A stretch of 64,000 nucleotides of DNA from Escherichia coli (GTDB lineage: Bacteria; Pseudomonadota; Gammaproteobacteria; Enterobacterales; Enterobacteriaceae): assembly GCF_044647545.1 (NCBI RefSeq), contig NZ_CP172818.1; one strand, given 5' to 3'. Made by a program: the position numbers and the translations under genes. The notes beneath the pieces are model-generated. The model searched no databases. It was given only the letters and a program-made list of their open reading frames with translations, and was not told the origin of the DNA. This document shows, in pieces, positions 21,156 through 52,909 of this stretch (positions are counted from its first letter, which is position 1; each line of letters opens with the position of its first letter).

Positions 21156-22654
21156 CAGAAACGCTCCAGTTCAGGAAAAGGTAAATGACCGTGATGCACA
21201 TGCATGGCACCAAATTCAGCACAGCGGTGTAGCGTGGGAATGTTTTTCCCAGGGTTCAGCAAACCATCGGGGTCAAACGCCGCCTTGACCGCATGGAAGG
21301 TCGTGATTTCATCGCTGTTGAACTGGGCGCACATTTGATTGATTTTTTCTCGCCCGATGCCATGTTCGCCACTGATGCTGCCGCCAACTTCAACGCAGAG
21401 TTCGAGGATCTTCCCGCCCAGCTCTTCCGCGCGGGCAAATTCACCGGGTTCGTTGGCATCGAAAAGGATTAACGGGTGCATGTTGCCATCTCCGGCATGA
21501 AAGACGTTGGCAACACGTAAATCATATTGCTGCGATAAACGGGCAATGCCTTCCAGTACGCCAGGCAGGGCGCGACGCGGGATGGTGCCATCCATGCAGT
21601 AGTAATCCGGGGAGATACGTCCTACCGCCGGGAACGCATTTTTGCGACCGGCCCAGAAACGTACGCGCTCTGCTTCGTCCTGTGCCAGACGGACGTCAGT
21701 CGCGCCCGCTTTCAACAAGATGTCGTTAACCCGCTCGCAGTCTTCCTGTACGTCAGACTCCACGCCGTCCAGCTCGCATAACAAAATCGCTTCGGCGTCG
21801 ACGGGATAACCGGCATGAATAAAATCTTCCGCCGCGCGGATCGACAGGTTATCCATCATCTCCAGCCCGCCGGGGATAATGCCATTGGCGATGATGTCAC
21901 CAACCGCAAGTCCGGCTTTTTCTACCGAGTCAAAGCTGGCTAACAGAACCCGCGCCACGGGCGGCTTCGGCAGCAGTTTTACCGTCACTTCGGTGGTCAC
22001 GCCGAGCATACCTTCCGATCCGGTGAACAGCGCCAGCAGGTCAAAACCAGGTGAATCCAGCGCGTCCGATCCAAGCGTCAGTGCCTCGCCGTCCAGCGTT
22101 TGCACTTCAATTTTCAGCAGGTTATGTACGGTCAGACCATATTTCAGGCAGTGGACGCCGCCGGCATTTTCAGCCACATTGCCGCCAATGGAACAGGCGA
22201 TTTGTGAGGAAGGGTCCGGTGCGTAGTAGAGATTATGCGGTGCAACGGCCTGGGAGATCGCCAGGTTACGCACGCCTGGCTGCACGCGCGCGCGGCGACC
22301 AACGGGGTTAATGTCGAGGATCTCTTTAAAGCGCGCCATCACCAACAACACACCTTTTTCCAGCGGCAGCGCGCCACCAGAAAGCCCGGTGCCTGCACCA
22401 CGGGTCACCACCGGTACACGCAGGCGATGGCAGACAGCCAGAATCGCTGTCACCTGTTCCATTTGCTTAGGCAGAACAACCAGTAATGGACGCGTGCGAT
22501 ACGCGCTCAACCCGTCACACTCGTAAGGAATGATCTCCTCATCGGTATGCAGGATCTCAAGTCCAGGGACATGCTCACGCAGTGCCATCAGTACCGATGT
22601 GCGGTCGACATCGGGTAAAGCGCCATCAAGACGCTCTTCGTACAAGATGCTCAT
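21155..22654 (-). CDS. glcD: Glycolate oxidase subunit GlcD (FAD-linked oxidase), 499 aa
   Basis: ORF track 499 aa beginning MSILYEERLDGALPDVDRT... Confidence 0.95.
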   Translation of the reverse strand: MSILYEERLDGALPDVDRTSVLMALREHVPGLEILHTDEEIIPYECDGLSAYRTRPLLVVLPKQMEQVTAILAVCHRLRVPVVTRGAGTGLSGGALPLEKGVLLVMARFKEILDINPVGRRARVQPGVRNLAISQAVAPHNLYYAPDPSSQIACSIGGNVAENAGGVHCLKYGLTVHNLLKIEVQTLDGEALTLGSDALDSPGFDLLALFTGSEGMLGVTTEVTVKLLPKPPVARVLLASFDSVEKAGLAVGDIIANGIIPGGLEMMDNLSIRAAEDFIHAGYPVDAEAILLCELDGVESDVQEDCERVNDILLKAGATDVRLAQDEAERVRFWAGRKNAFPAVGRISPDYYCMDGTIPRRALPGVLEGIARLSQQYDLRVANVFHAGDGNMHPLILFDANEPGEFARAEELGGKILELCVEVGGSISGEHGIGREKINQMCAQFNSDEITTFHAVKAAFDPDGLLNPGKNIPTLHRCAEFGAMHVHHGHLPFPELERF

Positions 22655-23675: not shown

Positions 23676-24950
23676 TTAAATCTGCTTTTCATACAATCGG
23701 TAACGCTTGTACGGCTCCGCCCCAATGCGTTCCAGCATGTTATTCATGCCTGTATTGGTTTCGAGGATCCATGACATCTCCAGCGCATCGATCTTCCGGC
23801 GGGCAAACGGATCGCGTAAGGCTTCAATCAATAACAGCGCAATCACCGGGCCGATGCGGCTGAACTGATACTCGTCGCGCACGCCCATCAGCGGTACTCG
23901 CGCAGTTCGCACACCGCTGACTTTCAAACGCCACAGCAATTTTGCCCAGCCGAAGGGAAAGAGCGATCCGTTCAGATCGGCAATCGCCTCGTTGATGTTC
24001 GGCAAGCCGACAATAAACGCGCAGGGTGCAGAATCAATCTCAGCGATATAGATCATATCGTCCGGCACCAGATATTTAAGTTGATCGCCCATGGTCGCGA
24101 ATTCATGTTCGGTAAACGGCACAAATCCCCAGTTGTGCTGCCAGCCAGAGTTGAAAATCTCACGCAGGATCTGCATCTCTTCGGCAAACCGCTGACGATT
24201 GATGCAGCGAATGGTCACCTTTTTGCGCACCTGATCCATCAGTTTTTTTAGCGCCGGAGAGAAAGTGAGATCGGTTCGCTGCATCCACCACGCCAGTAAA
24301 TCAATGCCTTTGTGATAACCCAGTTGTTCAATATGCGCGGCATACCACGGTTTGCCGTGTGGCATCATCGCACAGGGTGGTGTGTCAAAACCTTCAATCA
24401 GTAATCCGCTTTCCTGATTGATATTCAGGCTGAAAGGACCGCTGATCTTACTTGCACCTTGTGACTTCAACCACGCTTCCGCTGCGCCAAACAACGCGGC
24501 AAAAACCTGCGGATCATCAATGGCGTCAATCATGCCGAAATGACCGGTATCTTTGCCGTAACGCTCGCGGTGCAAGGTATCTATTTGCGCGGTAATACGC
24601 CCAACTATCTGCCCCGCTTTTTTTGCCACCCACGCCTGCCAGATGATATGGTCCGTCCCCGGATTTTTCGCAGACAAATGCTCGTTGCGTTCAATGAATA
24701 AAGGGGGTATCCAGTTTGGATCGTCGGGATAAAGTGATGACGGAAAAGCGATAAATGCCTTAAGGTCATTTTTATTAAAGACGTCGCGAAACTGAAGACA
24801 ACCGGAAATTAACTTAAAACACTCCGAACGAATTTTATAATAAAAAACGATCGCGTCATACCGAAACAATACGATTCGTAAGTTTTTTTCCATATCCTTA
24901 TCGCGTCCCTCATTCAATCGTTTTAAGCCAGGATCCCTGGTTAACGGCAA
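23676..24950 (-). CDS. yghO: YghO (GNAT-like acyltransferase fold protein); 5' end uncertain
   Basis: 424-aa ORF convergent with glcC; its start abuts the anomalous block; I recall yghO being a pseudogene interrupted by IS5 in K-12, and no IS5 is present here. Confidence 0.7.
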   Translation of the reverse strand: MPLTRDPGLKRLNEGRDKDMEKNLRIVLFRYDAIVFYYKIRSECFKLISGCLQFRDVFNKNDLKAFIAFPSSLYPDDPNWIPPLFIERNEHLSAKNPGTDHIIWQAWVAKKAGQIVGRITAQIDTLHRERYGKDTGHFGMIDAIDDPQVFAALFGAAEAWLKSQGASKISGPFSLNINQESGLLIEGFDTPPCAMMPHGKPWYAAHIEQLGYHKGIDLLAWWMQRTDLTFSPALKKLMDQVRKKVTIRCINRQRFAEEMQILREIFNSGWQHNWGFVPFTEHEFATMGDQLKYLVPDDMIYIAEIDSAPCAFIVGLPNINEAIADLNGSLFPFGWAKLLWRLKVSGVRTARVPLMGVRDEYQFSRIGPVIALLLIEALRDPFARRKIDALEMSWILETNTGMNNMLERIGAEPYKRYRLYEKQI

Positions 24951-24989
24951 TACGAACGATTCCTCACGTCCATTCGAACGATATCCCTA

Positions 24990-25500
24990 CCTCCATACAC
25001 CTCCCACACCCTTTCCGGCTCATTATCACCCACCGAAGAGGCTAATCACGTCTATAACACGACGGCATTAAATTACCCGCGACCGCATCGCTCCTCTACC
25101 ATGAAGGGACGGTCGGCTTGACCCCCCCACGCACCATAGATTACGCACCAATCACTCCCCAAGCTTAAAGACATAAAAACCGGCACCTCCCCCGCCCATG
25201 AATTTCCACGCCCTGAATGAAAGAAATCCCTGAACTGGATCTTTCTCTGCGCGTCGCGGTATTTCAGAACCCATCTCCAGAACAGACTCTATCAATTTGC
25301 CATGCCCCACATTAACTATGATCATTCAACCCACGCATACAACGAATACATTTTAACCACCCTTTTAACATACCAACCGATTCCTCCACTCCACCGAAAA
25401 TTATACGCCTACCTCCATACACCCCCACACCGTTTCCCGTCATTACACCCACCGAACACCGAACACTCTATAACACACGCATTAAATACCCCCGACCCCT
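24990..25500. repeat. C/A-rich non-coding segment with two imperfect ~100-bp direct repeats (about 24990-25090 and 25408-25500)
   Basis: CTACCTCCATACACC..CCCACACC..TTTCC..TCATTA.CACCCACCGAA...TCTATAACAC..CATTAAAT..ACCC occurs twice at roughly 80 percent identity by eye; no ORF support. Confidence 0.4.
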
Positions 25501-26024
25501 CTCCCCTTTCACCAATAATTCGGCTTTCTCCTGACCCCCCCACCACATAATTACATAATTTACTCCAATTAAAATCATAAAAAATCCGGCATTTCTCCTC
25601 TATGAATCCACTAATAAAAAATCTAATGGATCTCCCCTTACAAACACCCAAACAACCATCAATAATTTATTAAACAAACTCAACACAAAAATTCACTTTT
25701 ATGAACTCTTAACGAATATCCACACCAAACAGTAAACCCCTCAAACACGCCTATCGATTTTCCGTCAAGTAAAACTTTTGAACAGATTGAAAATCCGCAG
25801 TGAAGCATATCCGGCGCGGCGGAATTTAGTGCAGATGCTTCATCACTCCTCTCAACCTTTAACGAAATCCAATCTCAAATCAGTAAACCTCCCCGGTCAA
25901 AACGCCTATCACTTCTCAACTGCGGCAAAGCTGGAAATTATTAAATCCAGCACTGTGAGCGGTGTATGCCTTGGCGGAACAGTTTCGGTAAGCCACCTCA
26001 TCTCCGGTCCGTCTATGACTTACT

Positions 26025-26426
26025 TTGGCGACCAGTTCGCAAGCAATTGCCGCGACGGGCTGGTTAGACACCGGCGACCTCGGTTATCTGCTGGACGGTT
26101 ATCTGTATGTCACCGGACGCATTAAAGATCTGATTATTATTCGTGGCCGTAATATCTGGCCGCAGGATATTGAATATATAGCGGAACAGGAACCGGAAAT
26201 TCATTCTGGCGATGCGATTGCTTTTGTTACCGCCCAGGAAAAAATCATTTTGCAGATCCAGTGTCGGATCAGCGACGAAGAACGTCGCGGGCAGGTTTCC
26301 CACCCCGCACGCGGCCAAAATGAAAATGGAGTTACCCCTGCTAGCGATTTTCGATCTCTCCACACCACACCCTTTTACGGCCCCTCCAACCCCACCCGTG
26401 CGCAAGCGGAAACACGTAAACATTAG
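26025..26426 (+). pseudogene. Fragment of a fatty acyl-AMP ligase / adenylate-forming enzyme (C-terminal subdomain only)
   Basis: ORF translation contains WLDTGDLGYLLDGYLYVTGRIKDLIIIRGRNIWPQDIEYIAEQEPEI, matching the conserved TGDLG...TGRxKDLIIxRGxNxYPQDIE motif of FAAL/acyl-CoA synthetases; the N-terminal ~450 aa of such enzymes is absent. Confidence 0.55.
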
Positions 26427-26558
26427 CGTAGGCTTCTAGTCTCAATGTTCATGAACCCCAATCATTAATCAAACTGACACTGTGACGGTGGCGAGCGGTA
26501 CTAGCTTTAAAGGTATTAATATTATAACCTGCTCGCCCGCGGCTTTCACGTTCGCGCA

Positions 26559-26840
26559 TTGACGCGTACTGCCCGCGCTCACGTCAATGATAATCTCCCC
26601 TCGGTGGGGGGTTGGCTGCAGGATACTCATTCACTTAGCGAGCTGGTTGCCGGAGCCAGCGTAGTGGTCCATTGCGCCGGGCAAGTGCGCGGGACAAGCA
26701 CCACGCTAATCGACCAGTCTAACCTTACCAAGCACCAAAGAGAGCTGCTAGCGCCAACGGTGTCCGTTTTTTTCTACCCTTTTCTCTTTCTATCTTCAGT
26801 TCCCCCGTACCCAAACGCGCTATACTGCTCTGAGCAATGA
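26559..26840 (+). pseudogene. Possible NAD(P)-binding (SDR/epimerase-like) fragment
   Basis: Short ORF with ...LVAGASVVVHCAGQVRG... resembling a Rossmann-fold motif; weak. Confidence 0.2.
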
Positions 26841-27764
26841 CAATCAGTAATGGCGGACCAAATGACGCTGGTGGTGGACCACCTTACAGTCGGCGTTTTT
26901 CCCGCGAAAAAAGTGTTTAAACCCCGCGTTGACGGGATGAAACCCCTCTTTCTGTGACTACTTGGCGCCCTACAGACACAGCTTTCTTTGCCGGATATCA
27001 CCCTTTTTTTTCAGCAGGTGACCAATTAAGCCGGAGAAGCGCCTCAATGATACAGACGCAAAAATACAAGCAAACCTATGAATTATGCGATGGCGTCGCC
27101 GGCGGCTATGACTGGCAACGCGTACAGCAACTTGCCGCCGACGCCCGTTGCGGTTCCCTGGATGGTGTTCATTGCCGGTACTCACCGGCCTTGCGGATAT
27201 CAGTACCGCGTTGAGTCGCCTGGCAGGTAAAGAACCTATGCTCTACCCGTCGAAAATTCGTGAATTAACCCACGCTACCTTTCGTCAACTTCTAACCCTG
27301 TTGTTGAAGATAGTTAGCCTGGTCCCCGGATTACCCAGCAAGACGTATTACTTAACTTGTTTTTTGGTCTGTCACGTTTATATGTTTAATAATGTAATAA
27401 TAATAAATTGTAAAATTTCCTTTTTACAGGATTTTGTCGATATAGTGTAGTTATTCCGAAAGAGGGGGATCTCGTAAGCGCTATAGCCATTGCGTCGATG
27501 AACGTGCTGGGACTCTTTCTAATGGTTGGAGCCCGTAACGATGTTTCCATACCGATTCATATTTTGATGGCTATTAATACCCCTGCGGATGTCATAACCA
27601 CTGTGCTATCATGGGTGGCGCTTCTATCATGGGGCTATAAGGTAGATGTGCGCGACTAGCTAGAGGGCGACTGCGCTTTCGAGCCACCGCATTTTAGCCA
27701 TTACGGGTTACTCACCTGTTTATGATGTTTATTTCCGCCACCGAAGGCCGGATCGGCAATAAAA

Positions 27765-28259
27765 ATGATATCTGGCCGGGACCGATTTTTCGGTTTTGTA
27801 ACCTTTAATCATGATGCCATAGGCGAAGGTCAGGCCGCGTTAGCGGCCCAAGGTACCGGCACCACCGGTTCTCGTATGGCAAACGGCAGTTATGCGCCGC
27901 ACCTGGCGTTAGAGAAAGAGATTGCCGAGTTTTTCAATCGCCCTACCGCTATCGTTTTTTCAACCGGTTATACCGCTAATTTAGGCGTCATCAGCGCACT
28001 TGCCGACCATAACGCCGTGGTGTTACTGGATGCCGACAGCCACGCCAGTATTTATGACGCCTGTTCTCTCGGTGGCGCGGAAATTATTCGTTTCCGCCAT
28101 AACGATGCTAAAGATCTGGAACGGCGGATGGTTCGCCCCGGTGAACGGGCGAAAGAGGCGATTATCATCGTTGAGGGTATCTACAGCATGCTCGGTGACG
28201 TTGCGCCGTTAGCGGAAATTGTTGATAAACATCTGCGTGTGGGTGATTTTTGTTTCTAG
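27765..28259 (+). pseudogene. Fragment of an alpha-oxoamine synthase (BioF/KBL/serine palmitoyltransferase family, PLP-dependent)
   Basis: ORF translation GSRMANGSYAPHLALEKEIAEFFNRPTAIVFSTGYTANLGVISALADHNAVVLLDADSHASIYDACSLGGAEIIRFRHNDAKDLERRM...IIIVEGIYSMLGDVAPLAEIV matches the conserved N-terminal/middle part of AOS enzymes; the region with the catalytic lysine is missing. Confidence 0.6.
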
Positions 28260-28423
28260 TAAGGCCCTTTGGTTTGCGTTGTAGGCGGAAAGGGGGGGCG
28301 AACTGCTTAAACTTGTCGGGGTTGAGGTTATTGTGATTTTTATCGTCGGCACCTTCAGTAAGTCTCTCCCCTAGTTTCGCTTTTTTTGTCTGGTTTCGAA
28401 AGAGGTAAAAGTGGTGCGATGCC

Positions 28424-28468
28424 ACCCCCCCCCATATTTTTTTCCCCCCTCTCTTTCCCCCCCCTCGA
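28424..28468. repeat. Homopolymer-rich low-complexity tract (poly-C, poly-T)
   Basis: GCCACCCCCCCCCATATTTTTTTTCCCCCCTCTCTTTCCCCCCCC; atypical for E. coli. Confidence 0.6.
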
Positions 28469-28918
28469 CGCGCCCGTGCCGTTAACAATGAGCGCCATAC
28501 CACCAGAGCCGGGGCAAAAGCTGATGGAGAAGGATAATCACCTGTATCACTGTGTCGATATACAAGGATTGGATTTTAGGTTACATATAAGTATTAGAGT
28601 GCTGGTAATAATCATAATCAAATAGGACGGGGTACGTATCCGGCTCTAGCGTGTGTTTCTTTCGTTGATCTTTTATGTGCATCTTATCCTCCCCCCTGCC
28701 GGGCATCACGCCGTCGCGCTGTACCCTAAAGCGTGCACACTGCTGAGAGTAGACAAATCGATGCCATCATTCAGGCATTTGCTACTCTGAAGCAGTAATG
28801 TGAGCCCGCCGTGGTGTTGCGCCACGGCGGGTTTAATGTGTTGTGTGATATCACTTACACCAGGCTCAACGCCACCAGCACAAACGCTATCGGTAAACCG
28901 AGCGCGGTAACAGGTGCG

Positions 28919-29997
28919 TCACGCAAATAGCAATCCCAGATTGACCATGATTTGATAGCTGATCCAGGTGAGTAAGCCAACGATGACACCTACAGCGAGA
29001 CGGCTACCCATCCCTCGGGAGCGCGGGGCGCTAAAAATAAACTGGACAGCCAGGAAAAATAACCCCAGGGGTAGGAATGGTTTCCCCAGTTTTTCCAACA
29101 TGGCAAGGCGTTATCCGTGGTGGGTTGCCCCGTTTCCTGGCAATTATGGGAGTTATGGATTAAGTGGAGGGACGGAAAATATATTCCCCCGTCGTTATAA
29201 CTTTTCAATTTTTATACGTGTAAAGCGCTTGCCCGGGGCAATTTTATGATATTTTCCGAGTGTTTTTGCGCCTCTCCCCTATTTTTTCTTTCACTATTAC
29301 ACCATGCAGGATCCACGTTTTGTCGTCTTCAATGGTGGCACTGCGTGCATAAATGTAGGATTCGAGCGAAAGATTACCACGAGATTGTAATATCTCTCCG
29401 CCCACAGGGGCTCCCCGTGCTTGTTGCGCGTTTACCGCGACAAATTTTCTACCCCGCCCCTCCCACAGCGCATTTTGGGGGTAGTGACCTCCTCCCCCCC
29501 ACGGCGCTGGCAGTCGATTTGATTTGCAGCGCCTGTTGCTGCAATGGCGACGCCACCCACTCATCTATCGCGCCTAACGAAACAGTCCACAATATCCCGG
29601 CAACCAGCGCCACCAGTGCAATACGGAAGATAGAAAACCCAGTGCTGCGAATGGCGGTAAGCTCACTGTTTTTCGATAACTGCCCCAGGCCAACAATCCC
29701 TCCCAATAATGCGATAAACGGCGAAAGTTCGACCAGTGTACGCGGTAAGGTCATCAGCACCACCAGCACCGCCTGAGTCCAGCGATAACCGCCCGGGCTG
29801 ACATCATCCAGTTCGTTAATCAGGTTGAAGGTGGTAAAAAGCGGCAGCAATAGCCCTGCGGCGGCGGCAAAACCGAGAAAGAGATGACGGATTAAATAGC
29901 GACTGAAAACGTTCTTCGGGAAAATTTCTGGAGCAAAGAGAAGTCGCGTGCGACCAGCATCAGCAGGCCCATTAGCATGAGTCCGGGTACTAACCAC
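28919..29997 (-). pseudogene. LptF/LptG-family (YjgP/YjgQ) permease homolog, fragmented (N-terminal and C-terminal pieces in different frames)
   Basis: ORF 29449..29997 has FSRYLIRHLFLGF...LPRTLVELSPFIALLGGIVGLGQLSKNSELTAIRSTGFS, an LptG-like N-terminus; ORF 28919..29101 resembles the C-terminal TM segments; frames are broken. Confidence 0.45.
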
Positions 29998-30981
29998 AAA
30001 CCAGGAAGGATGGGGACGCGTTTGCGCCCGTTAGCGCACTCGGCAGACGTCGCCGCCATAAAAAATGGCAATAAACAGCAACGTCAGTGGCAATAACGTT
30101 GTAAAATCGCCCTTGCCGCGGTTTTACCCGACTTAATGAAATGGCCAGCAGCGCCATCAACAATGCGGTCAGGCCACGGCTTTGTCGCCATTGCAGTTCG
30201 GCATGATCGGCAGGAAAGGCGGAGCGCGCCAGCTCCGTGACCGATTTTGCTTTGCGTTTGACGTTAGGGCTTTGATCCAGCGGATTCAGATGTAATTGCA
30301 GATTACGGTAGATCTGTTCGTTGTCGTCACGCCCCTGATGATCGAGAAGATAGGCGGTGCCATTCAACAAAATGATCGTTGGTTAGTTGAGTGGTCAACC
30401 ACACCAATCGAACGGACGCGGGAAAAACGTGTGCGATCGGTAGGAGAAGGATAAATCAGTGCGTGAGTCAGTCGAGCATTTATTTTATTAACCGACCGTC
30501 AAAGGAACATTCGTTCGTTAGTTTTCGTTTGTATTTTATTTCTTCCCCAACAAGTGGAGATCCACCAGCTACGGCTACGGCTGTTCCAGCCGATAAAAAT
30601 TCTGAGAATCCCACGGCCGACGATCCAACGACGGAAGGGGGATAAAAATACTTATTGGTATTATCAGAAAATGAAGGGCGGCTTTCAACCGTCGCCCAGG
30701 GCCCCCCCCGAGAGAGAGCTGGAGGTTATTAGCGGGTAGATATCCGTCCGACCGAGAGTCCAACCGACAGATACATACCGACAGGCAAGTACATCCCCAT
30801 CGCGAGCAGTACGCTGTATGTAACGATCGCTATCCCGAACATCAAGAGCTAAGGTCCCATTTGCCGCTTCGGTCAGATAACGCTGTGCGGAGTAGCTGGC
30901 GAAAATAAAGATCAGAAAACCGACGATAATCAGCACCAGACGGCGCGTACCACGCATGATGTAGTGTTCAACCAGCTTCAT
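29990..30981 (-). pseudogene. Second LptF/LptG-family permease homolog, fragmented (tandem with the downstream copy)
   Basis: ORF 30685..30981 starts MKLVEHYIMRGTRRLVLIIVGFLIFIF (LptF-like N-terminus); ORF 29990..30370 has AELQWRQSRGLTALLMALLAISLSRVKPRQGRF matching the conserved NPRQGR region; frames are broken. Confidence 0.45.
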
Positions 30982-31011
30982 CTCACTAACACCCTCAATC
31001 CTTTGAATTTT

Positions 31012-31573
31012 TTATTCATTGATCAGTTTCTGCGCCAGCGCAATGACATGATCTACCTCTTCCGGCGTCAGGCTGCCGTCCTTTGCCCACTGAATTTGCC
31101 CGTCTTTATTCAGCACCAGAATGGTTGAACTCTGCTCCGGCAACCGCCAGGCAACGCGTCCCAGTCCATTGCCGTCAATAACGAATTGCGCCCACGGATA
31201 GCGGCGTTTATTTTTTTCGATTTTGCCAACGACAAAATAGCCAGTACCAAAGATGGCATCATCGGTGTTCACAATGGTGGTGGGCTGAAAACGATCCTGC
31301 GGAAAGTTTGCCGCTTCAACCGCTTTAATTAACAGTGGCTTTTTTTTTTTCGCGGCCACTCACCCGGCGCTATATTCGGTATAACGCGGTTTTCCCCCGC
31401 GATGTGTGCTGTTCCCCACTTTGTGGTGTGTATTGTCGTCGCTCTATTCAGAAGGATCGCCCCGTTCCTGGGTATTAAACGGGGGTAACCGTTTTGCCAG
31501 TGACAAAATTGTGTGCCTGCACACCCTGGGCTAAGAGCATGATAATCAGCGCAATAATCAAACGAGATGACAT
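31012..31573 (-). pseudogene. YtfJ-family periplasmic protein homolog, frameshifted near a poly-T/poly-A tract
   Basis: C-terminal ORF 31012..31359 has ...TTIVNTDDAIFGTGYFV...YPWAQFVIDGNGL...LVLNKDGQIQWAKDGSLTPEEV matching E. coli YtfJ as I recall it; a signal-peptide-like N-terminus MSSRLIIALIIMLLAQGVQAHNF begins at 31573 in another frame; total span fits a ~185-aa protein. Confidence 0.55.
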
Positions 31574-32675
31574 CATTGCTCCGGTTATAGCGGAAAACGC
31601 GAAATCAGCAGCTCTAAGCGCTGGCGAATATCGCTATCCAGCGCCACCGGTGCATTATACGACCGGGCGGTTTTCCTAATAATCCCCACCATTGTGGCCG
31701 TGTTTTCCCCCATCAGGCCATTAATGGCGGCGAGGAAGCGGGAAATCTTTTATTGCTTTTGTTTATCAAGCGATCTTAAGGTGTCGTAATAAGAAACCTG
31801 CTGACTGATGATTTTTCGCACATCATGAAATTCCCTGCCGGTTAGTCGCGGTTTGGCAATTATCTTTTCATGTGAATTATTTTTTTTCGATAAAAATAAA
31901 AAAACTTCCGATTTTTGAATTGGTAAGGCTTAATGAAAATTCCACCAAGGACAAGACCGAAAAGTTTAATAAAACCCTAAACAATTTCCCTTAAACCAAC
32001 CCATTATTTTCTTTACCTTTAGGAAAACCTCCTGGAAACGGCCCCAAAAAAACGTCCTTTTTCCGGTAAAAAAATCCCCTCTTATTTGATAGTAAATACA
32101 GCCAATGCACAAAATTCAGGCGCTTTCAGCTCTCTTTTATGATTTTATTGTTCATCCGCAGTAAGATTCACCTCATTGCCTTTTTTCTGTTTTCATAGTA
32201 AACGCACCAACTCATTGAGATTAATGAGACTGAGTTAGAAGTGTAGCCAGTACTTGTAATTAATAATATGATTGGGTAAATATAATGTAATGCTAGACGC
32301 CACACTAAACTGACCAGCGCCGCCATCATATTATTCTACTCAACCGAAACAAAGATACCTCCCCTCGCGCGAAAAATGTAATATTTTCTTTATGATTACT
32401 ATTCCGCTCCGTTATCAAGATAAAGAAAGGAATGGCGCTGAAAAAATGCCGTCAAGGTTGGAGAGAACGAGAGCACCAGATATAGACAACCGCCATCGAA
32501 AAAAGCAAATCCCACCCCGACACGCAAACAACTACAAACAGATGAACAGCAATACGAAACTATACCGATGATGTCATGTTTCGCCACGATTGAGGCGATG
32601 GTTTCCCACGAAAAACCCTTTTTCCCCATCATACAATACTCCTGTGGGAAAAGCGCGCTGTTCCCCGCATCGAAA

Positions 32676-40977: not shown

Positions 40978-41093
40978 GGCAACATTGGCACTTATCCTAT
41001 TACCATAAACATTTTAACTAACCCCAAAACCACATTTCATTAACTTTTTCCCTCCCCAATTTTTTTTTTTTCCTAAAAAACACCCCCCTTCCC

Positions 41094-41150
<57 letters not shown>

Positions 41151-41169
41151 ATTTTCGTGCAGCGAGTCC

Positions 41170-41520
41170 CATTTCCCCCGATAAGACCGGTATTTCTTCA
41201 GGCCACAGGAGACTTCAGGCCAAGCTGCTGCATCAGTTTTCGCACCGTTTTGCCACTGAACTTGAGACCTCTTTTCTGAAGTTCACAGTCGATCCGCCGG
41301 TACCCATAACATCCCCGGTGTTCATGGAAGATGGAGGGGATGGGCTGTTTCACATCACAATACTTTTCTTAGCCTTCTGCAGTGACAGCTGATAGTACAG
41401 CGTGCTTCTGGCCAGCCCTGCGAAGCCTTTAACAGGTCAGACTGGCAGTGTCCGCACCTCAGGTTCTGGATGACTTTCGCTTTTTCTCCAGCTCCAGGCG
41501 CTTTTTTCCCAGGAGATCCT
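41170..41520 (-). mobile_element. IS3-family transposase remnant (OrfB N-terminal region, frameshifted and truncated)
   Basis: Minus-strand translations give ...GLARSTLYYQLSLQKAKKSIVM and EHRGCYGYRRIDCELQKRGLKFSGKTVRKLMQQLGL, matching the conserved N-terminal motifs of IS3-family OrfB; no DDE catalytic domain and no inverted repeats follow. Confidence 0.5.
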
Positions 41521-42037
41521 CCTGCATGCCTTCCAGATATGCATTTCCTGCGCAAAAATACCCCCCTCCTTCTTCTCTCTTTCCGCCCTCTGTTTCCCCT
41601 CCTTTTCTCGGGTATCAACAAAACGGTCATTCTTTTCTCCCTCCCGCGCCTAAAAAAGCCCTCACCACCAGTTTGTGTCGCCTTTTTCCTGTTTTCCGCC
41701 GTGTGGTGGCCGGGAATGTTAAAGCCGGCCGGCCGCGGGGGAGAGACAGAGAAAATGCGAGAAAACAAAAAAAAACACGCAAAGTCTCTCTAGAAGAAAA
41801 TAGCCGCCCCCGTTCCTGCAATCCAGGAGCAGAAGAGCGAAAAAAAAAAAAAGAATAAAGGGGGGAGGGGGTGGTATAAAAAAGTTAAAATTGTTGTGGT
41901 GAAAAAAGGAGGCCAGACGGGCCGGTGAAAAAATTCTGTGGGGAAGACTATTTTAAATAAAGGTTTTGTAAAAAACACCACCTGATGTGATATGATATTC
42001 ACTACAAGTGTGGGGTGGAGTTTACGCGCCCTAATCA

Positions 42038-42286
42038 TCACGCGCTGGTAATGTCGTAATCCATTTGGCGCAGCGCGTCTAATGTGGCTTTGGCTTCGTC
42101 TTCATCGATGATGCTCATGGCAAATCCGACGTGCACCAGTACCCACTGGCCCAGCAGATCGGCAGGGTTACCTTCGCAAATCAGGGCGATATTCACGTCG
42201 CGCTTGATACCACATACTTCAACCTGCGCAAGCTGGTGAATATCTTCACCGACAGCCAGCACCTGGCCTGGAACGCCAATACACAT
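42038..42286 (-). CDS. hybG: Hydrogenase maturation chaperone HybG (HypC family), 82 aa
   Basis: ORF track 82 aa beginning MCIGVPGQV (HypC MCxxxP motif). Confidence 0.93.
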
Positions 42287-42298
42287 TGTTAACTCCGG

Positions 42299-42640
42299 TT
42301 ATTCAACTTCAATACTTTTGACGATCAGCGAATCGCCGGTATCGACACGCAACCGCTCGCCATGACAGAGCGGGCATTGCGCATCGTGCTGATGAATCTC
42401 CACCACCTGGCTGCAATCCCAGCACCAGGCCTGGGCGGGTTTATAGACGATATGTAAATCGCACCCTTGCGCCACCGTTCCGTGGCAGACAATTTCAAAA
42501 CTAAAACGGACGGCGCTCTCCTCAACGCAGGAGAGCGCGCCAATTTCCAGCCACACGGCGGTGACGCGCTTAACATCGTGCTGCTCCGCCTGCCGTTGGA
42601 TAATTTCAACGGCGCTCTGGCAAAGCGACAACTCATGCAT
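42299..42640 (-). CDS. hybF: Hydrogenase nickel incorporation protein HybF (HypA family), 113 aa
   Basis: ORF track 42299..42694; start at the Met giving MHELSLCQSAVEII...; CxxC...CxxC zinc site. Confidence 0.93.
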   Translation of the reverse strand: MHELSLCQSAVEIIQRQAEQHDVKRVTAVWLEIGALSCVEESAVRFSFEIVCHGTVAQGCDLHIVYKPAQAWCWDCSQVVEIHQHDAQCPLCHGERLRVDTGDSLIVKSIEVE

Positions 42641-43121
42641 TTTCGCCACTCCTGCGGCCAAACAGCAGGGCGCGACGCCCTGCGTGTGGTACATCCGGAT
42701 TGGTGACTGGCAGCGAAAGGATCATTCGTGCGCAGTCATCCGTCAGGCGTTGGCCCTCTTCAATCGACATGCTGTGCGAAAGCGGCGACATCAGCGAACA
42801 GGAGAGATATTGAGAAACACCGTCCAGTTCGCCAACGGTAAAGGTCATAGTGCCATACGGCAGTTGCAGACCAATTTTTTCACTCACTTTGCGCAGCGGC
42901 CAGAGTTGATCCGGGCCGGGGAAGATAACCGCACTCAGCATCCACGGGGTGATCACACACCCCGTCCACTGACCTTCGAACAGCGTAAAGTCAGAAACAT
43001 ACACCGGCATTGAAGGATGCAGAAAAGAGAGATCGTGCATCGAACGCCGGGCAATTTCTTCAAACGCTGCCTGTACTTGCGCCTTCGGGGAGGTCTGGAA
43101 ACCTGCTATCTCTTCAGTCAT
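42633..43121 (-). CDS. hybE: Hydrogenase-2 operon chaperone HybE, 162 aa
   Basis: ORF track 42633..43196; start at the Met giving MTEEIAGFQTSPKAQVQ...; 8-nt overlaps with neighbouring genes. Confidence 0.9.
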   Translation of the reverse strand: MTEEIAGFQTSPKAQVQAAFEEIARRSMHDLSFLHPSMPVYVSDFTLFEGQWTGCVITPWMLSAVIFPGPDQLWPLRKVSEKIGLQLPYGTMTFTVGELDGVSQYLSCSLMSPLSHSMSIEEGQRLTDDCARMILSLPVTNPDVPHAGRRALLFGRRSGENA

Positions 43122-43608
43122 GAATCGCCTCCCGTGGGATGGCTTCCACGCCTGATTCGCGCAGCGCAGCCAGAACCTGCTCAAGCGCAGGTTCAATCAT
43201 CGCTTCAACCGTCGGCGTTAAGCCGATGTGTGGCTCCAGCGATTCCGGGATCACGCCGACCAGGGTCAGCTTTTTCGGAAACTCACCGGTGAAGCGCAGG
43301 GCCGACAATACGTCGGCCAGGCCAAGCTGATGCGGAGAGATTTTGTTGGTAAACAACGCCGGAACTTCTTCATCCCGCAGGATCATCATCGTTCCCGGCG
43401 CGCTCTTCTTCGACACAATAGCATCCGCAATGATCAGATGATCGCGATTTGCCATGTCGCCAAGCAGCTCCATTCCCGCCGTGCCGCCATCGAGGATCTC
43501 AACATAATCCGGCAGAATGTATCGTTGCTCTAACGCTTCGACAATCCGCACACCGATGGCTTCATCGGTCAGCAAAATATTGCCGACCCCTAAGACTAAA
43601 ATACGCAT
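43114..43608 (-). CDS. hybD: Hydrogenase 2 maturation endopeptidase HybD, 164 aa
   Basis: ORF track 164 aa beginning MRILVLGVGNILLTDEAIG. Confidence 0.93.
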   Translation of the reverse strand: MRILVLGVGNILLTDEAIGVRIVEALEQRYILPDYVEILDGGTAGMELLGDMANRDHLIIADAIVSKKSAPGTMMILRDEEVPALFTNKISPHQLGLADVLSALRFTGEFPKKLTLVGVIPESLEPHIGLTPTVEAMIEPALEQVLAALRESGVEAIPREAIHD

Positions 43609-45311
43609 TACAGAACCTTCACTGAAACCACTTCGTTGCCGTCAGCATCCACTACGTGTACCGCACAGGCCATGCACGGGTCGAAGGAGTGAATGGTACG
43701 CACCACTTCCAGCGGTTTATTCGGATCGGCAACCGGCGTACCCACCAGCGACTGCTCGTAAGGACCGACGTCATCATTGAAGTTACGCGGGCCAGAGTTC
43801 CAGGTTGATGGAACAACTGCCTGGTAGTTACTGATAATACCGTCTTTGATCACCATCCAGTGAGAGAGCATACCGCGCGGCGCTTCAAGGAAACCAACGC
43901 CTTTGAACTCACCTGTAGCCGGAATGTTCGGCTTCACAAAGGTGGTGTGATCGCCTTTGCCGATATTGGTGATCAGTGCACTGTATTGATTTTGCAGGAT
44001 ATCCTGCAATTCGCAGCAGTGAACGGTACGACCAATAATACGGCCCAGCGTGGAGTGCAGCTGCGCCACTTCCAGCGTGTTGCCAGTCAGTTTCTGATAA
44101 ATCGCAACGATTTCATTCAGTTTGTTCTGGGTAGACTCGCGTCCTGCCGCCAGTTTCACCAGCATGTTAGCCAGCGGACCCACTTCTACCGTTTTGCCGT
44201 AGAAAGTCGGTGATTTCACCCAGGAATATTTACCGTCGTCAGACCAACCATCATAAGCCGGAATGGTGGTACCTTCCCACGGTGCCTGCGGCGCTTCGTC
44301 TTTATACCAGGAGTGCTTCGCGCTTTCCTGAATCCCTTTGATCAGGTATTCATCGGAATGAGAAGTGATCGGACGATACGAGGACAGATCCGCATTCTCA
44401 ATGTAGCCGCCCGGGAACAGGAAGCTGCCGTTTTTGCTGTCGGTAGGGAATTCTGGCACGCTCAGGTAGTTCACCGCACCTTTACCGCGCGTCAGCCATT
44501 CCGGGTAGAACGCGGCGATAACCGCGGTATCAACCTTGTAAACCTGCTCAACAAAGTCGCTCAGCTTGTCGATGAAAGACTTGATGTACATCAGGCGCTC
44601 AAGGTTCAACACGCCCAAACCGTCGAGGTTGATCGGGTTCGCGACACCACCTACCGCCAGGTTCTGAATGTGCGGCGTTTTACCGCCCAGCAGCGCCACG
44701 ACGCGGTTAGCGTCACGCTGGCACTCCAGCGCCTGCAGGTAGTGCGCTACCGCAATCAGGTTCACTTCCGGCGGCAGTTTCATCGCCGGGTGACCCCAGT
44801 AGCCATTGGCGAAAATACCCAACTGACCGCTGGCAACCAGATCTTTGATCTTGTTCTGAACTTTGGTGAACTCTTCCGGGCTGTTCAGGTGCCAGGTCGA
44901 AACACCTTTCAGCATTTCGGAGGCTTTGGTTGGGTCAGCTTGCAGTGCAGAAGTGATGTCCACCCAGTCCAGCGCCGAGAGCTGATAGAAATGAACGATA
45001 TGGTCATGCGTGGTGTGCGCAGCCAGAATGATGTTACGGATGTATTGCGCGTTAACCGGAACGTCGATATTCAGCGCACTCTCTGCCGCACGAACGGAAG
45101 ACAGCGCGTGAGTGGTAGTACATACGCCACAGATACGTTGCACAATCATCCATGCATCGCGCGGATCGCGGTTTTTCACGATCTCTTCCATGCCGCGCCA
45201 CATGGTACCGGAAGCCCATGCTTTCGAAACGACACCATTTTCGATTTCGCAATCGATGCGTAAATGCCCCTCAATACGGGTTACCGGATCAATAGTAATT
45301 CTCTGGCTCAT
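43608..45311 (-). CDS. hybC: [NiFe] hydrogenase 2 large subunit, 567 aa
   Basis: ORF track 567 aa; N-terminal RICGVC and C-terminal DPCMACAVH nickel-binding motifs. Confidence 0.96.
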   Translation of the reverse strand: MSQRITIDPVTRIEGHLRIDCEIENGVVSKAWASGTMWRGMEEIVKNRDPRDAWMIVQRICGVCTTTHALSSVRAAESALNIDVPVNAQYIRNIILAAHTTHDHIVHFYQLSALDWVDITSALQADPTKASEMLKGVSTWHLNSPEEFTKVQNKIKDLVASGQLGIFANGYWGHPAMKLPPEVNLIAVAHYLQALECQRDANRVVALLGGKTPHIQNLAVGGVANPINLDGLGVLNLERLMYIKSFIDKLSDFVEQVYKVDTAVIAAFYPEWLTRGKGAVNYLSVPEFPTDSKNGSFLFPGGYIENADLSSYRPITSHSDEYLIKGIQESAKHSWYKDEAPQAPWEGTTIPAYDGWSDDGKYSWVKSPTFYGKTVEVGPLANMLVKLAAGRESTQNKLNEIVAIYQKLTGNTLEVAQLHSTLGRIIGRTVHCCELQDILQNQYSALITNIGKGDHTTFVKPNIPATGEFKGVGFLEAPRGMLSHWMVIKDGIISNYQAVVPSTWNSGPRNFNDDVGPYEQSLVGTPVADPNKPLEVVRTIHSFDPCMACAVHVVDADGNEVVSVKVL

Positions 45312-46486
45312 GCTTTGCTCGCCTCATGACGATTATGATCGTTTTGTTTTAAAGGAGGAAGTATCGGCAGTAGACGAATGAGTACGATGTAAGCGCAAAT
45401 CTCAATAGCCACAAAACCAATAGAAATCAACAGTTCTTCCCAGGTCGGGAAGTAGGCGTAACCGCCGCCCGGGTTGAATGCCACCAGCGAATAGGTCAGA
45501 CGCCAGGTTGCACAACCTAACAGTGCGCTCAGTGCTGACAGGAACAGCATGCGGGAATCATTACGCAGCTTCGCCACACGCAGAACGACCAGCGGGAAGA
45601 GCATCAGCAGGACTTCAATCCAGAACATCACGGAGTAGAAGTCACCGGCAAATGCTAACGACAGCTTGTCGCGATAGATAAGCTCGCCAAAGCGCAGCAC
45701 GATGAAAATCGCCAGCAACACACTGATGGTGTTGGTCAGCTTAACGAACAGACTCTTTTCATCCGGACCGTTGCCACGCAGACCCGCCTGCACCAGCGAA
45801 CCTTCAAAGATGACAATTGAGAAGCCCATGATGAACGCCGTCAGCAGCGAGAACAGCGGCAACATTTCATAGCTTTGCCACAGCGGATGCACCTTGTAGC
45901 CCGCCGAGATCATCAGCGACCCCATTGAAGACTGGTGCATGGTCGGCAGCAGCGCGCCAAGTGCAATGATGAAGAACATCACCTTGTTCAGACGCTGTAG
46001 CGACACCTTCCAGCCCAGACGTTCAAACAGTGCCGGAGCAAACTCCAGTGCCATCACGCCGATATAGATGGTCATACAGACCGCCGTCTCGAACAGTACC
46101 GAGTTCACGTTGAAGTGACCCGGAATGTAGAAGTACGGCAGGTTCCAGTAGCGACCCACGTCGATGGTGATCGACAAGCCACCCAAGGAGTAACCGAACA
46201 GACTTGCCAACAGCGCCGGACGCACCAGCGGATGGTATTGCCCACGGTTAAAGACGTATACTGCCCACGCCAGCGCCCAGCCGCCACAGGCAAAGCCGGT
46301 ACCGATCAACAGGTCAAACGCGATCCACACGCCCCACGGGAAGCCGCCGTTCAGGTCAGAGACAGAGCCAAGACCGAACACCAGACGCTTCACAATCAGG
46401 AGCATACAGATGACGATTAACGGTCCAAAAATCATGACCGGTTTACTGATGATTTTGCCGCCCAGCGGTTGTGGATCATGACTCAT
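45308..46486 (-). CDS. hybB: Hydrogenase 2 integral membrane subunit HybB, 392 aa
   Basis: ORF track 392 aa polytopic membrane protein. Confidence 0.95.
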
Positions 46487-47462
46487 GATCGTCTCCTCCG
46501 TCGTGATGGTCGTTTTTGGTGTTGCGACGAACCAGCACGGTTAAGCCCGCCAGCACAGCCAGTGGTAGCATCATGCCTTTATACAGGGTGTGTTGAATAT
46601 TTTCGGAACGCGCACCGGTAGAAAGATCGTCCAGTTTCGGCAGGTCGAGATTTTCATAAGGCACACCCGTCAGTACCAGAACCTGAGTACCGCCGCCCTC
46701 TTTCTCGCCGTACAGATGCGGATAATATTTCGGCACCGTATGCAGGTAAGTGTCGCCAGATTTCAGCGTCTGACGCGGATAGTGGTATTCGCTGCCAGGC
46801 TTCAGCGCCAGACGTTTTTTCGCCTCCGCCATCAGCTCTTCACGCGTACCGAAAATCACCGCGCCCGCCGGGCACACTTCTACGCAGCCAGGCAGACCGC
46901 CTTTATCGAGACGTTCCACACCTTTCTGGTTGCACAGCTCGCACTTATGCAGCGCACCAAACGGGTTGTTGTAGTCGTACTTCGGCACATTGTATGGGCA
47001 GGCGACCATGCAGTAACGGCAGCCGGTGCACACGTCTTTGTCGTAATGGACAATGCCGGTTTTCGGATCTTTTTTCAGTGCAGAAACCGGGCACACGGAG
47101 ACACAGTTCGGATCGACGCAGTGCATACACTGTTTCTTAATGTACGCGTAGCCGTTCTCCTCCTGGTCTTTGTTGACGCCCGTGCCGCTGGTCCACACCT
47201 GAATGATGTTATTGGTATACGGCGACAGTTTGTCGTTGTTCGACCAGGTCTGTTCCCCTTGCGGGTTACGTTCAGGGAAGTTGATATCCTGACACTTGGT
47301 GACGCACGCCTGGCAGCCTACGCACAAGGTCGAGTCGTACAACATCCCCAGCGATCCCGGAATTGGCGGGCGGTTTTCAGCAGCCGCATGACTGACAGAC
47401 GGCAGCGCGCCCGTCAGCAATGCCCCGCAGGAGGCTGCTTTAATAAAATTACGTCTGTTCAC
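46476..47462 (-). CDS. hybA: Hydrogenase 2 ferredoxin-type 4Fe-4S subunit HybA, 328 aa
   Basis: Tat-type N-terminus [16 protein letters not shown] and multiple Cys clusters. Confidence 0.95.
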
Positions 47463-47464
47463 GG

Positions 47465-48583
47465 TTATTCTCCCCGTGAGTCAGCGTTATCTTTCTTTTG
47501 CTGACGACCCAGTTCACGCACCGCCATCACGCTGACACCGGCAACCAGCCCAACCACACCGCCGAGCAAACCAATAGCGCCCGCAGAGACGTTGCCGCCT
47601 TCTTTAGCGTTAACATCCGGTTTCTGTGAACGCGGAGTCTGGTTTTCGACGTTGGCAAGCTGATGGATGCCTTTATGGAAGCCGATACCTTCTTCGTTAC
47701 AGCCATAGCACGGGTGACCAATCGCCACCGGCCACACACCGCCAACATCGCAGAATTGCAGCGTTGAGCAGTTGCCGTAAGTTTCTGGCCCTTTACAGCC
47801 GAGGTGGTACAGGCACCAGCCTTCGCGGTGGCCTTCATCACCGAACTCTTTGGCAAAACGACCAGCATCGAAGTGCGGGCGACGTTCGCAGTGTTCGTGA
47901 ATCAGACGGCCATAGGCGAAGGTCGGACGGTTTTTGTCATCCAGTTTCGGCGGCTTGCCGTAAGTGATGATGTGCGCAACGGTCGCGAGGAAGTTGTGCG
48001 GGTTCGGCGGGCAGCCAGGAATGTTGATTACAGTTTTGCCCGGCAGAACTTCTTGCAGGCTGACTGCGCCAGTTGGGTTAACTCCAGCTGCGGCAACACC
48101 GCCCCACGCAGAGCAGGAACCGATAGCGATAATGGCTGCTGCGCCTTCCGCCGCTTTGCGGATGTGATCCACAATCGGCTCACCGGCAACCATGCAATAA
48201 ATACCGTTATCTTTTAATGGGATGGAACCATCCACCACTAACACATACTGCCCTTTGTACTTCTCGAGAGCGTTATGTTTGTTCTCTTCGACCTGATGAC
48301 CGAAGGCGGCGGAAAGCACTTCGTGATACTCCAGAGAGATAGTCTCCAGCACGAGGTTTTCTACCGTTGGATGCGTTGCACGAAGCAGAGATTCCGTACA
48401 ACCGGTGCACTCCTGCGCGCCAATCCAGATAACTGGCGGACGCTGCGGGTTAGTAACCGATTCGGCCATCTCTGCAGCGGCTTTGCTACTTAACCCCATG
48501 GTGGCGGCTAATGCTGCACAAAGCTTCATGAAATCACGACGGTTAATGCCGTGAGAATGGATGAGGGTGTTATCTCCAGTCAT
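47465..48583 (-). CDS. hybO: [NiFe] hydrogenase 2 small subunit HybO, 372 aa
   Basis: Tat signal with RRDFMK motif; first gene of the hyb operon. Confidence 0.95.
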
Positions 48584-48771
48584 TTATAGTTATTCCGTTG
48601 CGAAGACCTGGCATATATTTTGCCTCAATCGCAAAATCAATAATGCGATCGATGCGCCATTTACCACACATTTATTATGGTTATCGATATCATGATACTG
48701 CGGCGGGGCACTAAAACGAAGGGAAGAAGCATTAGTGTAATTAATTAAAGCAAGATAATACGTATGTTTGA
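48584..48771 (-). promoter_or_regulatory. hyb operon promoter region (upstream of hybO)
   Basis: AT-rich intergenic region upstream of the first hyb gene; individual sites not resolved. Confidence 0.35.
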
Positions 48772-49059
48772 TCAATTTTCTAGGCGATAACCGGCCATAA
48801 AAAAGCGCAACGTAGAACAGGAATTATTCTCACGAAAGAAATCCATTACCATCTCTTTATCCAGTCCATAACGGCGCGTCAGAATACCCGCTTCCCAGGC
48901 GCTAAGCTGGCGATCTCCGGTCTTTTCGTACATCCGGTGTGAGTAGCCTAATACAAAACCGCGTTTATAATCGGCACAGAATTTTGTCACATTAACCGCA
49001 CTGTCGGCATGCGTTGCTTTTAATCCCGCCATTAAGCCTTTACCAAAATGGTTATTCAT
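48772..49059 (-). CDS. yghW: Uncharacterized protein YghW (DUF2623), 95 aa
   Basis: ORF track 95 aa in the expected position next to hybO. Confidence 0.85.
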
Positions 49060-49177
49060 CGTTCACCTCATTCGCTATATATTTTCATATATAGCGATAT
49101 TTTAGGCAAAGAACGACTTTTGCGCACGCTATTTTTTCATGCTTGTTTAAGACGTAATCCCGTAAGAGATAAACCTA

Positions 49178-50065
49178 TCAGGAGAGATATTTATCGAACC
49201 ATTTCAGCGTCCTTTGCCAGGCAAGATCGGCGGCAGATTTGTCATAACGGGGCGTGGAATCATTATGGAATCCGTGATTAACCCCCGGATAGATATACGC
49301 CTCATAGACCTTATTATTGGCTTTCAACGCCGCCTCGTAAGCAGGCCAGCCCTCGTTGATTCGGGTGTCCAGTTCCGCGTAGTGCAACAGTAAAGGCGCT
49401 TCAATCTTCGCCACATCGGCAGTGGGTGCCTGACGACCATAAAACGGCACCGCGCAGGCCAGTTCCGGGTAAGCGACCGCTGCCGCGTTCGATACGCCAC
49501 CGCCATAGCAAAATCCGGTAATACCCACTTTGCCTGTCGCTTGCGGATAGCGTTGCATAAACTCAATTGCGGCAAAGAAATCATTCATCAGTTTGGTTGG
49601 ATCAACCTGCTGTTGCAGCTCACGACCTTTATCGTCATTACCCAGATAACCTCCAACGGAACTTAAGCCGTCAGGTGCCAGGGCGATATACCCCGCCTTC
49701 GCCACTCGCCGTGCCACATCTTCGATATACGGATTCAGTCCACGATTCTCATGCACCACCACCACGGCTGGCGTTTTGCCGCTCATCTTTGCGGGCTTCA
49801 CCAGATAACCCCGTACCTCGCCGTGACCATTTGGCGAAGGATACGTGATGTACTCAGCAACAATCTCCGGGTCGGTAAACTCTACCTGAGTCGCCAGCGC
49901 ATAATTTGGCTTGAGCAAATCAAACAACGCTAATGCCGTCATCCCGCCCACCGCATACTTCGCCGCAAGGTTGAGGAACTCACGTTTCGAGATTTTCCCG
50001 TGAGCGTAATAGTCGTAGTAATCCAGCAACTCTTGTGGGAAATCTTTGGCGGTTAAACGCGGCAT
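49178..50065 (-). CDS. yghX: Dienelactone hydrolase-family protein with Tat-like N-terminus (yghX locus), apparently intact
   Basis: ORF track 49178..50104; start taken at the Met giving MPRLTAKDFPQELLDYY..., preceded by a GAGGAG ribosome-binding site. Confidence 0.8.
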   Translation of the reverse strand: MPRLTAKDFPQELLDYYDYYAHGKISKREFLNLAAKYAVGGMTALALFDLLKPNYALATQVEFTDPEIVAEYITYPSPNGHGEVRGYLVKPAKMSGKTPAVVVVHENRGLNPYIEDVARRVAKAGYIALAPDGLSSVGGYLGNDDKGRELQQQVDPTKLMNDFFAAIEFMQRYPQATGKVGITGFCYGGGVSNAAAVAYPELACAVPFYGRQAPTADVAKIEAPLLLHYAELDTRINEGWPAYEAALKANNKVYEAYIYPGVNHGFHNDSTPRYDKSAADLAWQRTLKWFDKYLS

Positions 50066-52877: not shown

Positions 52878-52909
52878 GCCCGGTTGTGAAAAGCAACCGG
52901 GCTTTTATT
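52878..52909. terminator. Bidirectional rho-independent terminator between convergent yghA and exbD
   Basis: GCCCGGTTG-tgaaaag-CAACCGGGC stem-loop flanked by A-run and T-run. Confidence 0.65.

Follow-up and report, generated by a model that had tools for sequence, protein, structure and literature searches.

Short gene overlaps and internal start codons in the maturation genes of an Escherichia coli hydrogenase 2 operon

The window, the whole stretch of DNA analysed here, is a 64,000-nt segment of an Escherichia coli chromosome with the gene order nupG-speC-yqgA-pheV-yghD...sslE-glcABGFEDC-yghO...gss-yghU-hybGFEDCBAO-yghW...ygiQ. The genes of interest lie on its minus strand, where hybO, hybA, hybB, hybC, hybD, hybE, hybF, and hybG follow one another in that order, all on one strand. 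The overlaps at issue lie in the 3' half of hybOABCDEFG, the E. coli operon for [NiFe]-hydrogenase 2 and the maturation factors dedicated to it. Positions 42,032-49,400 are 100% identical to several complete ST648-type genomes (e.g., FDAARGOS_497 and ECONIH1), and identity is 95-99% in 5,322 of the other matching genomes. We rebuilt the genes from start to stop from the letters of the window, with the following result.

47465-48583, minus strand: hybO, hydrogenase-2 small subunit, first gene of the operon, 372 aa (ORF and translation; RefSeq annotation of an identical sequence)
46476-47462, minus strand: hybA, 328 aa, GTG start, 2-nt gap after hybO (reconstruction; RefSeq)
45308-46486, minus strand: hybB, 392 aa (reconstruction; RefSeq)
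43608-45311, minus strand: hybC, hydrogenase-2 large subunit, 567 aa (reconstruction; RefSeq)
43114-43608, minus strand: hybD, maturation endopeptidase, 164 aa (RefSeq; NCBIfam NF007777 over positions 1-164 of 164)
42633-43121, minus strand: hybE, hydrogenase-2 assembly chaperone, 162 aa, ATG at 43121 (annotation, Shine-Dalgarno sequence, NF007776, PDB 2KC5)
42299-42640, minus strand: hybF, HypA-type nickel metallochaperone, 113 aa, ATG at 42640 (annotation, Shine-Dalgarno sequence, six NCBIfam HypA models)
42038-42286, minus strand: hybG, HypC-type chaperone, 82 aa, N-terminus MC... (annotation, profile, Shine-Dalgarno sequence)

The four maturation proteins score above curated equivalog cut-offs: HybD with 311.5 bits (cut-off 190), HybE with 285.1 (188), HybF with 244.6 (113), and HybG with 173.5 (115). 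The HybF translation contains the two CxxC motifs of a zinc site, CWDC and CPLC, expected of the HypA/HybF family. Like other nickel metallochaperones of this family it starts with MHE and matches HypA models end to end, and there is no notable difference from them. Gene order, gene lengths, and overlaps all equal those of the E. coli K-12 hybOABCDEFG operon (hydrogenase 2; Menon et al. 1994, cited in PMC9002611). HybO, HybA, HybB, HybC, HybE, HybF, and HybG carry identical RefSeq accessions in K-12 and in a genome 100% identical to the window, and the HybD allele differs (WP_001221953.1 versus WP_001221939.1). In relatives of the window's strain an IS3-family element lies just downstream of hybG, and K-12 lacks it.

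A consensus scan for promoters and terminators over 41900-49000 gave a site count not above that of shuffled sequences; the sole suggestive site resembles a promoter and lies upstream of hybO. Inside hybF, a perfect 10-bp inverted repeat (42,513-42,538, minus strand; GCGCTCTCCT...AGGAGAGCGC) followed by a T-rich tail looked terminator-like in the scan. It falls within codons for GALSCVEESAV and is probably incidental.

Five of the seven junctions between hyb genes are short same-strand overlaps (-1, -4, -8 twice, and -11). The junctions, and the ribosome-binding sequences ahead of hybD, hybE, and hybF, are as follows.

hybO/hybA, minus strand: +2 nt
46476-46486, minus strand: hybA/hybB, -11 nt, ATGAGTCATGA
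45308-45311, minus strand: hybB/hybC, -4 nt, ATGA
43606-43610, minus strand: hybC/hybD, -1 nt, TAATG with base 43608 common to the hybC TAA stop and the hybD ATG
43114-43121, minus strand: hybD/hybE, -8 nt, ATGACTGA (ATGNNTGA type)
42633-42640, minus strand: hybE/hybF, -8 nt, ATGCATGA (ATGNNTGA type)
hybF/hybG, minus strand: +12-nt spacer with GGAG
43616-43620, minus strand: weak Shine-Dalgarno-like GAAGG of hybD, in the last hybC codons, anti-Shine-Dalgarno duplex -3.5 kcal/mol
43128-43133, minus strand: Shine-Dalgarno sequence GGGAGG of hybE, inside the hybD 3' end, -10.3 kcal/mol, more extreme than the 1st percentile for start codons in the window
42649-42653, minus strand: Shine-Dalgarno sequence AGGAG of hybF, inside the hybE 3' end, -7.0 kcal/mol

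The original prediction, which covered 42633-43608 (exactly hybE plus hybD), had described overlaps of 1 nt for hybD/hybC, 8 nt for hybE/hybD, 8 nt for hybF/hybE, and, elsewhere in the window, 1 nt for glcD/glcE. All are present where it placed them. Every hyb entry in its list is right, but the list is incomplete: the 4-nt hybB/hybC and 11-nt hybA/hybB overlaps are absent from it, as is the 2-nt gap between hybO and hybA.

Overlaps are common in this part of the chromosome. In an annotated reference of about 69 kb, 14 of 46 same-strand neighbour pairs overlap, by 1 nt (n = 6), 4 nt (n = 5), 8 nt (n = 2), or 11 nt (n = 1). With distances compiled by hand from the reference annotation, hyb is richer in overlaps than the remainder (5/7 junctions versus 9/39 elsewhere; one-sided Fisher p = 0.02). 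The operon is compact, yet of an ordinary kind. Its overlaps are textbook short gene overlaps, already known and without new biology; the operon, the boundaries of its genes, and short overlaps of this type are all established.

Six of the seven downstream starts have a clear Shine-Dalgarno sequence within the 3' end of the preceding gene, and that before hybD is weak. This weak sequence sits within the codons for the HybC C-terminal tail (43,611-43,655, minus strand; ...VVDADGNEVVSVKVL), which we take to be the peptide cleaved off by HybD itself during hydrogenase-2 maturation.

The list of longest ORFs extends hybE and hybF back into the genes before them. For hybE it gives 187 aa from a TTG at 43196 instead of 162 aa (25 additional codons), and for hybF 131 aa from an ATG at 42694 instead of 113 aa (18 additional codons). 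The true starts are the internal ATG codons, at 43121 for hybE and at 42640 for hybF, and the longer ORFs are mere open frame reaching back into the upstream gene. Several lines of evidence identify these starts. RefSeq annotations of NZ_CP033850.1 (100% identical over hyb) and of K-12 MG1655 (NZ_CP032667.1) both give HybD 164, HybE 162, HybF 113, and HybG 82 aa, with C/D, D/E, and E/F overlaps of 1, 8, and 8 nt, as in the window. Ribosome-binding sites were scored by the anti-Shine-Dalgarno duplex energy at each in-frame start candidate, against a background of all start triplets in the window (median -1.7, 5th percentile -6.1 kcal/mol). The annotated hybE start reaches -10.3 kcal/mol versus -2.8 for the best upstream candidate, and that of hybF -7.0 versus -1.5. 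In NCBIfam profile alignments, positions 1-162 of NF007776 correspond to residues 26-187 of the hybE ORF, and all six HypA models begin at residue 19 of the hybF ORF. The 162-aa HybE chain of PDB 2KC5 likewise equals ORF residues 26-187, the HybD structures (PDB 1CFZ and 2KML) begin at residue 1, and the HypA structures (PDB 3A43 and 6G81) begin at MHE.

The chemistry of nickel binding points to the same hybF start. Read from the ATG at 42640, HybF begins MHELSL..., with the Met-His-Glu nickel motif at the very N-terminus. HypA proteins bind nickel via the N-terminal amine and His2 of the conserved MHE motif, and a single residue inserted after Met1 of a HypA-type protein alters the nickel site (PMC7055735). 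An 18-residue extension of HybF is therefore incompatible with the known chemistry. The claim that starts had to be set from internal Met codons thus agrees with RefSeq, Shine-Dalgarno scores, NCBIfam, PDB, and the HybF MHE motif. Both of the checks proposed with it favour the short forms: ribosome-binding-site scoring prefers the internal starts, and comparison with curated protein lengths shows that the longer starts, named as the refuting outcome, are not used in RefSeq NZ_CP033850.1 or K-12 MG1655.

A search of a collection of species-representative genomes with a degenerate nucleotide pattern built on the HybF N-terminus recovered 42 loci. Left out of the junction counts were six hypA genes of the hyp operon (Edwardsiella and Hafnia) and one locus that ends 16 nt upstream of hybF (L021). 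The 35 hyb loci kept come from Citrobacter, Salmonella, other Escherichia species, Pseudocitrobacter, Trabulsiella, Intestinirhabdus, and two Enterobacterales MAGs. Their HybE proteins are between 42% and 100% identical to that of the window. The spacings were distributed as follows.

hybO/hybA: +2 in 13 of 13 loci
hybA/hybB: -11 in 14 of 15 loci
hybB/hybC: -4 in 16 of 17 loci
hybC/hybD: -1 in 32 of 32 loci (TAATG in 28, TGATG in 4)
hybD/hybE: -8 in 32 of 34 loci, as seven sequences (ATG-TC/AC/CC/GC/AG/AA-TGA and ATGGATAA)
hybE/hybF: -8 in 35 of 35 loci, with identical sequence, partly fixed by the search pattern
hybF/hybG: non-overlapping, with spacers of nine lengths from 12 to 133 nt

The D/E and C/D counts are independent of the HybF search pattern, and the E/F count is not fully so. 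The codon for His2 of HybF is CAT in all 35 hyb loci, and also in the non-overlapping hypA genes of Edwardsiella and Hafnia found by the same search, so its constancy says nothing on whether the overlapping TGA forces this codon. The GTG start of hybA is kept in 13 of 14 loci and replaced by ATG in one. The two D/E exceptions are a Citrobacter locus in which hybD ends early (L031) and a distant MAG with a 27-nt spacer (L033). In the former (Citrobacter amalonaticus AUH_CA_2023_1, 368-856) the hybD stop comes after about 134 codons and leaves an 83-nt gap to hybE; it could be a frameshift or an assembly error. The longest hybF-hybG spacer, 133 nt versus 12 nt, occurs in Escherichia sp. E1V33 (L027, 2702-2836) and could be an inserted element.

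What role might these overlaps have? A review names -4, -1, and -8 (NTGNNTGA) as the three spacing classes enriched in all prokaryotes (PMC12548453), and the -1, -4, and -8 overlaps of hyb fall in them. Specifically, the hyb motifs TAATG, ATGA, and ATGNNTGA are the same three motifs as those of spatially coupled ORF pairs with -1, -4, and -8 spacing (Brown and Wade 2025, PMC12548453; Huber et al. 2019, PMC6728339). As in such pairs, the downstream Shine-Dalgarno sequences lie inside the upstream ORF (strong for hybE and hybF, weak for hybD), and the products interact in one complex or pathway. Unlike such pairs, hyb has an additional -11 junction, outside the enriched classes. Among native overlapping gene pairs of E. 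coli, four of five were coupled in reporter assays, mostly with assistance from a Shine-Dalgarno sequence (PMC6728339). The sole paper that we found joining hyb with translational coupling does so as speculation about a plasmid construct (PMC9002611).

Translational coupling is the likely role of the hyb overlaps. A ribosome ending an upstream hyb gene may reinitiate at, or expose, the adjacent start, so that structural subunits, the HybD protease, and the HybE and HybF chaperones would be made together from one mRNA. Production of HybD, HybE, and the HybF nickel chaperone would in this way be linked to production of HybC, their substrate. Coupling efficiency peaks between -4 and +3 and drops with longer overlaps (PMC12548453), so coupling at the -8 and -11 junctions may be only partial. 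The strong Shine-Dalgarno sequences at those junctions could support independent initiation. In a variant of coupling, a stable RNA structure sequesters the downstream start until the ribosome unfolds it. The 81-nt regions at six junctions fold no better than shuffled controls (z -1.2 to +0.4), and this variant is thus without support over reinitiation.

The main alternative is that the overlaps are neutral by-products of the turnover of starts and stops, each gene initiating independently at its own Shine-Dalgarno sequence. Simulations with point mutations only do reproduce the lengths of overlaps, with 4 nt and then 1 nt commonest (PMC3887535). Most hyb junctions have a good Shine-Dalgarno sequence of their own, the junction RNA is not unusually structured, and de novo initiation was seen in bioBF, one of the E. 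coli pairs tested (PMC6728339). Inertia also accounts for part of the conservation of the overlaps, since both frames code for protein and selection acts against indels regardless. However, the geometry is held in 32/34 to 35/35 loci while the D/E overlap bases vary and HybE falls to 42-46% identity, and most of the native E. coli pairs noted above were coupled. We consider this alternative unlikely. Ordinary short overlaps, internal ATG starts, and a likely translational coupling together form what is very probably the best explanation of the hyb junctions.

An extension of the coupling explanation concerns the two consecutive -8 overlaps (ATGNNTGA), which are kept from Escherichia to distant Enterobacterales, with the -1 and -4 types occurring elsewhere in the operon. 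Conceivably, though we regard it as quite doubtful, they were selected for a fixed, attenuated coupling ratio. If so, the output of HybE and HybF would be set at a defined, sub-stoichiometric fraction of that of HybC and HybD, and the spacing class would be a tunable expression dial, not a mutational accident.

The longer ORFs could be used at least as minor isoforms, HybE from the TTG at 43196 (187 aa) and HybF from the ATG at 42694 (131 aa), but this is very improbable. Both extension frames are open, and an ATG 18 codons upstream of hybF recurs across many genera. This ATG lies within conserved HybE codons, which explains its recurrence. The extended starts lack a Shine-Dalgarno sequence (-2.8 kcal/mol at TTG 43196 and +0.9 kcal/mol at ATG 42694), and the extensions are covered by no profile or structure among the NCBIfam and PDB entries compared. 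Nor are they conserved. In several species an in-frame stop precedes any alternative start, e.g., for hybE in L023, L006, L011, and L018 and for hybF in L004, L012, and L026. Curated annotations carry the short forms of both proteins, and an extension of HybF would bury the nickel-binding N-terminal amine of HypA proteins.

It is scarcely credible that the 8-nt overlaps are programmed frameshift sites yielding HybD-HybE or HybE-HybF fusions: the sole support is two open frames across each junction, and against it no slippery heptamer or stimulatory structure is evident at the overlaps, an Rfam scan of the whole window at gathering thresholds found nothing in the hyb operon, and the annotated and structurally studied products are separate proteins of 164, 162, and 113 aa.

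Similar features occur in the glc operon, also on the minus strand.

21155-22654, minus strand: glcD, 499 aa
20103-21155, minus strand: glcE, 350 aa
21153-21157, minus strand: glcD/glcE, -1 nt, TGATG with common base 21155
18869-20092, minus strand: glcF, 407 aa (470 aa in the ORF list, 63 additional codons)
18460-18864, minus strand: glcG, 134 aa (140 aa in the ORF list, 6 additional codons)

The other glc spacings are +10 (glcE/glcF), +4 (glcF/glcG), and +21 (glcG/glcB), and glcF and glcG are non-overlapping at their true starts. Upstream alternative starts for both genes were rejected on Shine-Dalgarno, profile, and annotation evidence. The annotated glcF start scores -8.5 kcal/mol versus -6.6 for the best upstream candidate, and that of glcG -5.6 versus +0.2. 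Model position 1 of NF008434 and NF007275 aligns to ORF residues 64 (GlcF) and 7 (GlcG), respectively. RefSeq gives GlcE 350, GlcF 407, and GlcG 134 aa in NZ_CP033850.1 and in K-12 MG1655 (NZ_CP032667.1), and the annotation of ECONIH1 has the short glc forms and the same overlaps.

The ORF track thus does over-extend hybE, hybF, glcF, and glcG, as the original prediction held, by 25, 18, 63, and 6 codons. Its reading of this as a caveat for automated annotation rather than new biology stands, but the caveat applies only to naive longest-ORF calling, and the NCBI pipeline sets the starts right. The practical value is as a check on scans, where longest-ORF lists over-extend genes that start inside the gene upstream. 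Here the correct starts were recoverable from Shine-Dalgarno strength, profile coverage, and cross-species comparison.

Three blocks of the window, about 10 kb in total, have a non-natural look, and each adjoins sequence 100% identical to real genomes. The blocks touch neither the hyb nor the glc genes discussed here, and findings inside them are not trustworthy given their degraded or non-natural look. The largest (24,779 to ~32,650; about 8 kb) occupies a strain-variable island that K-12 lacks, and shares 68-82% identity with each E. coli genome searched. It shows about 180 gap openings, most of them 1-2 nt long, and mismatches spread evenly over the codon positions (339/312/351), with the consequence that all its genes are broken. 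These are the yghO 5' end, a fatty acyl-AMP ligase, an epimerase, an ACP, spt, lptG/lptF-like genes, ytfJ, and a hypothetical gene. Within the block, 24,950-25,900 is C/A-rich, with a GC skew of -0.46. The flanks of 24,779-32,650 are 100% identical to ECONIH1, and the block itself has the look of an artefact or of non-natural sequence rather than of divergence.

The second block (41,045-42,031) lies between yghU and hybG, 6 nt past the hybG stop, and is a degraded copy of the IS3-family element. The element is intact in close relatives; the copy in the window is about 450 bp shorter and 82-83% identical. It includes a C-rich tract of about 65 nt (41,083-41,149), and the differences from the reference at its left edge are almost all dropped G bases. 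The third block (~61,006-62,018), between yqhH and ygiQ, is poly-A-rich and of low complexity (GC 0.29, AT skew 0.45, 3-mer entropy 4.93). The closest genomes have two hypothetical genes at this position, and both flanks in the window are 100% identical to the reference. Most of the differences from the reference at the block edges are dropped Gs. Overall, these features point to an assembly or consensus artefact, or to generated or corrupted sequence, at strain-variable loci.

Other features of the window were also recorded. Positions 1-13,000 have a K-12-type layout, with no island at pheV and an 8-kb deletion from gspL to gspD (junction 6790/6791). The yghD-gspL' and gspC-sslE segments that remain match ECONIH1, a genome with the full gsp operon and a capsule-type island, at 99.9-100% identity. 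Over the first 5.3 kb, the best full-length identity to any complete genome is 98.7%. The only Rfam gathering hits in the whole window are the C0719 sRNA between glcA and glcB (15,991-16,212), the ES173 sRNA directly downstream of the yqhD ORF (58,608-58,671; ORF 57418-58605), and a tRNA (5,068-5,140) where a closely aligned genome annotates tRNA-Phe. Finally, the yghA-exbD intergenic spacer has a 5-nt deletion (ATCAT) at 52,903 relative to FDAARGOS_497; apart from it, the two sequences are identical over about 12 kb.
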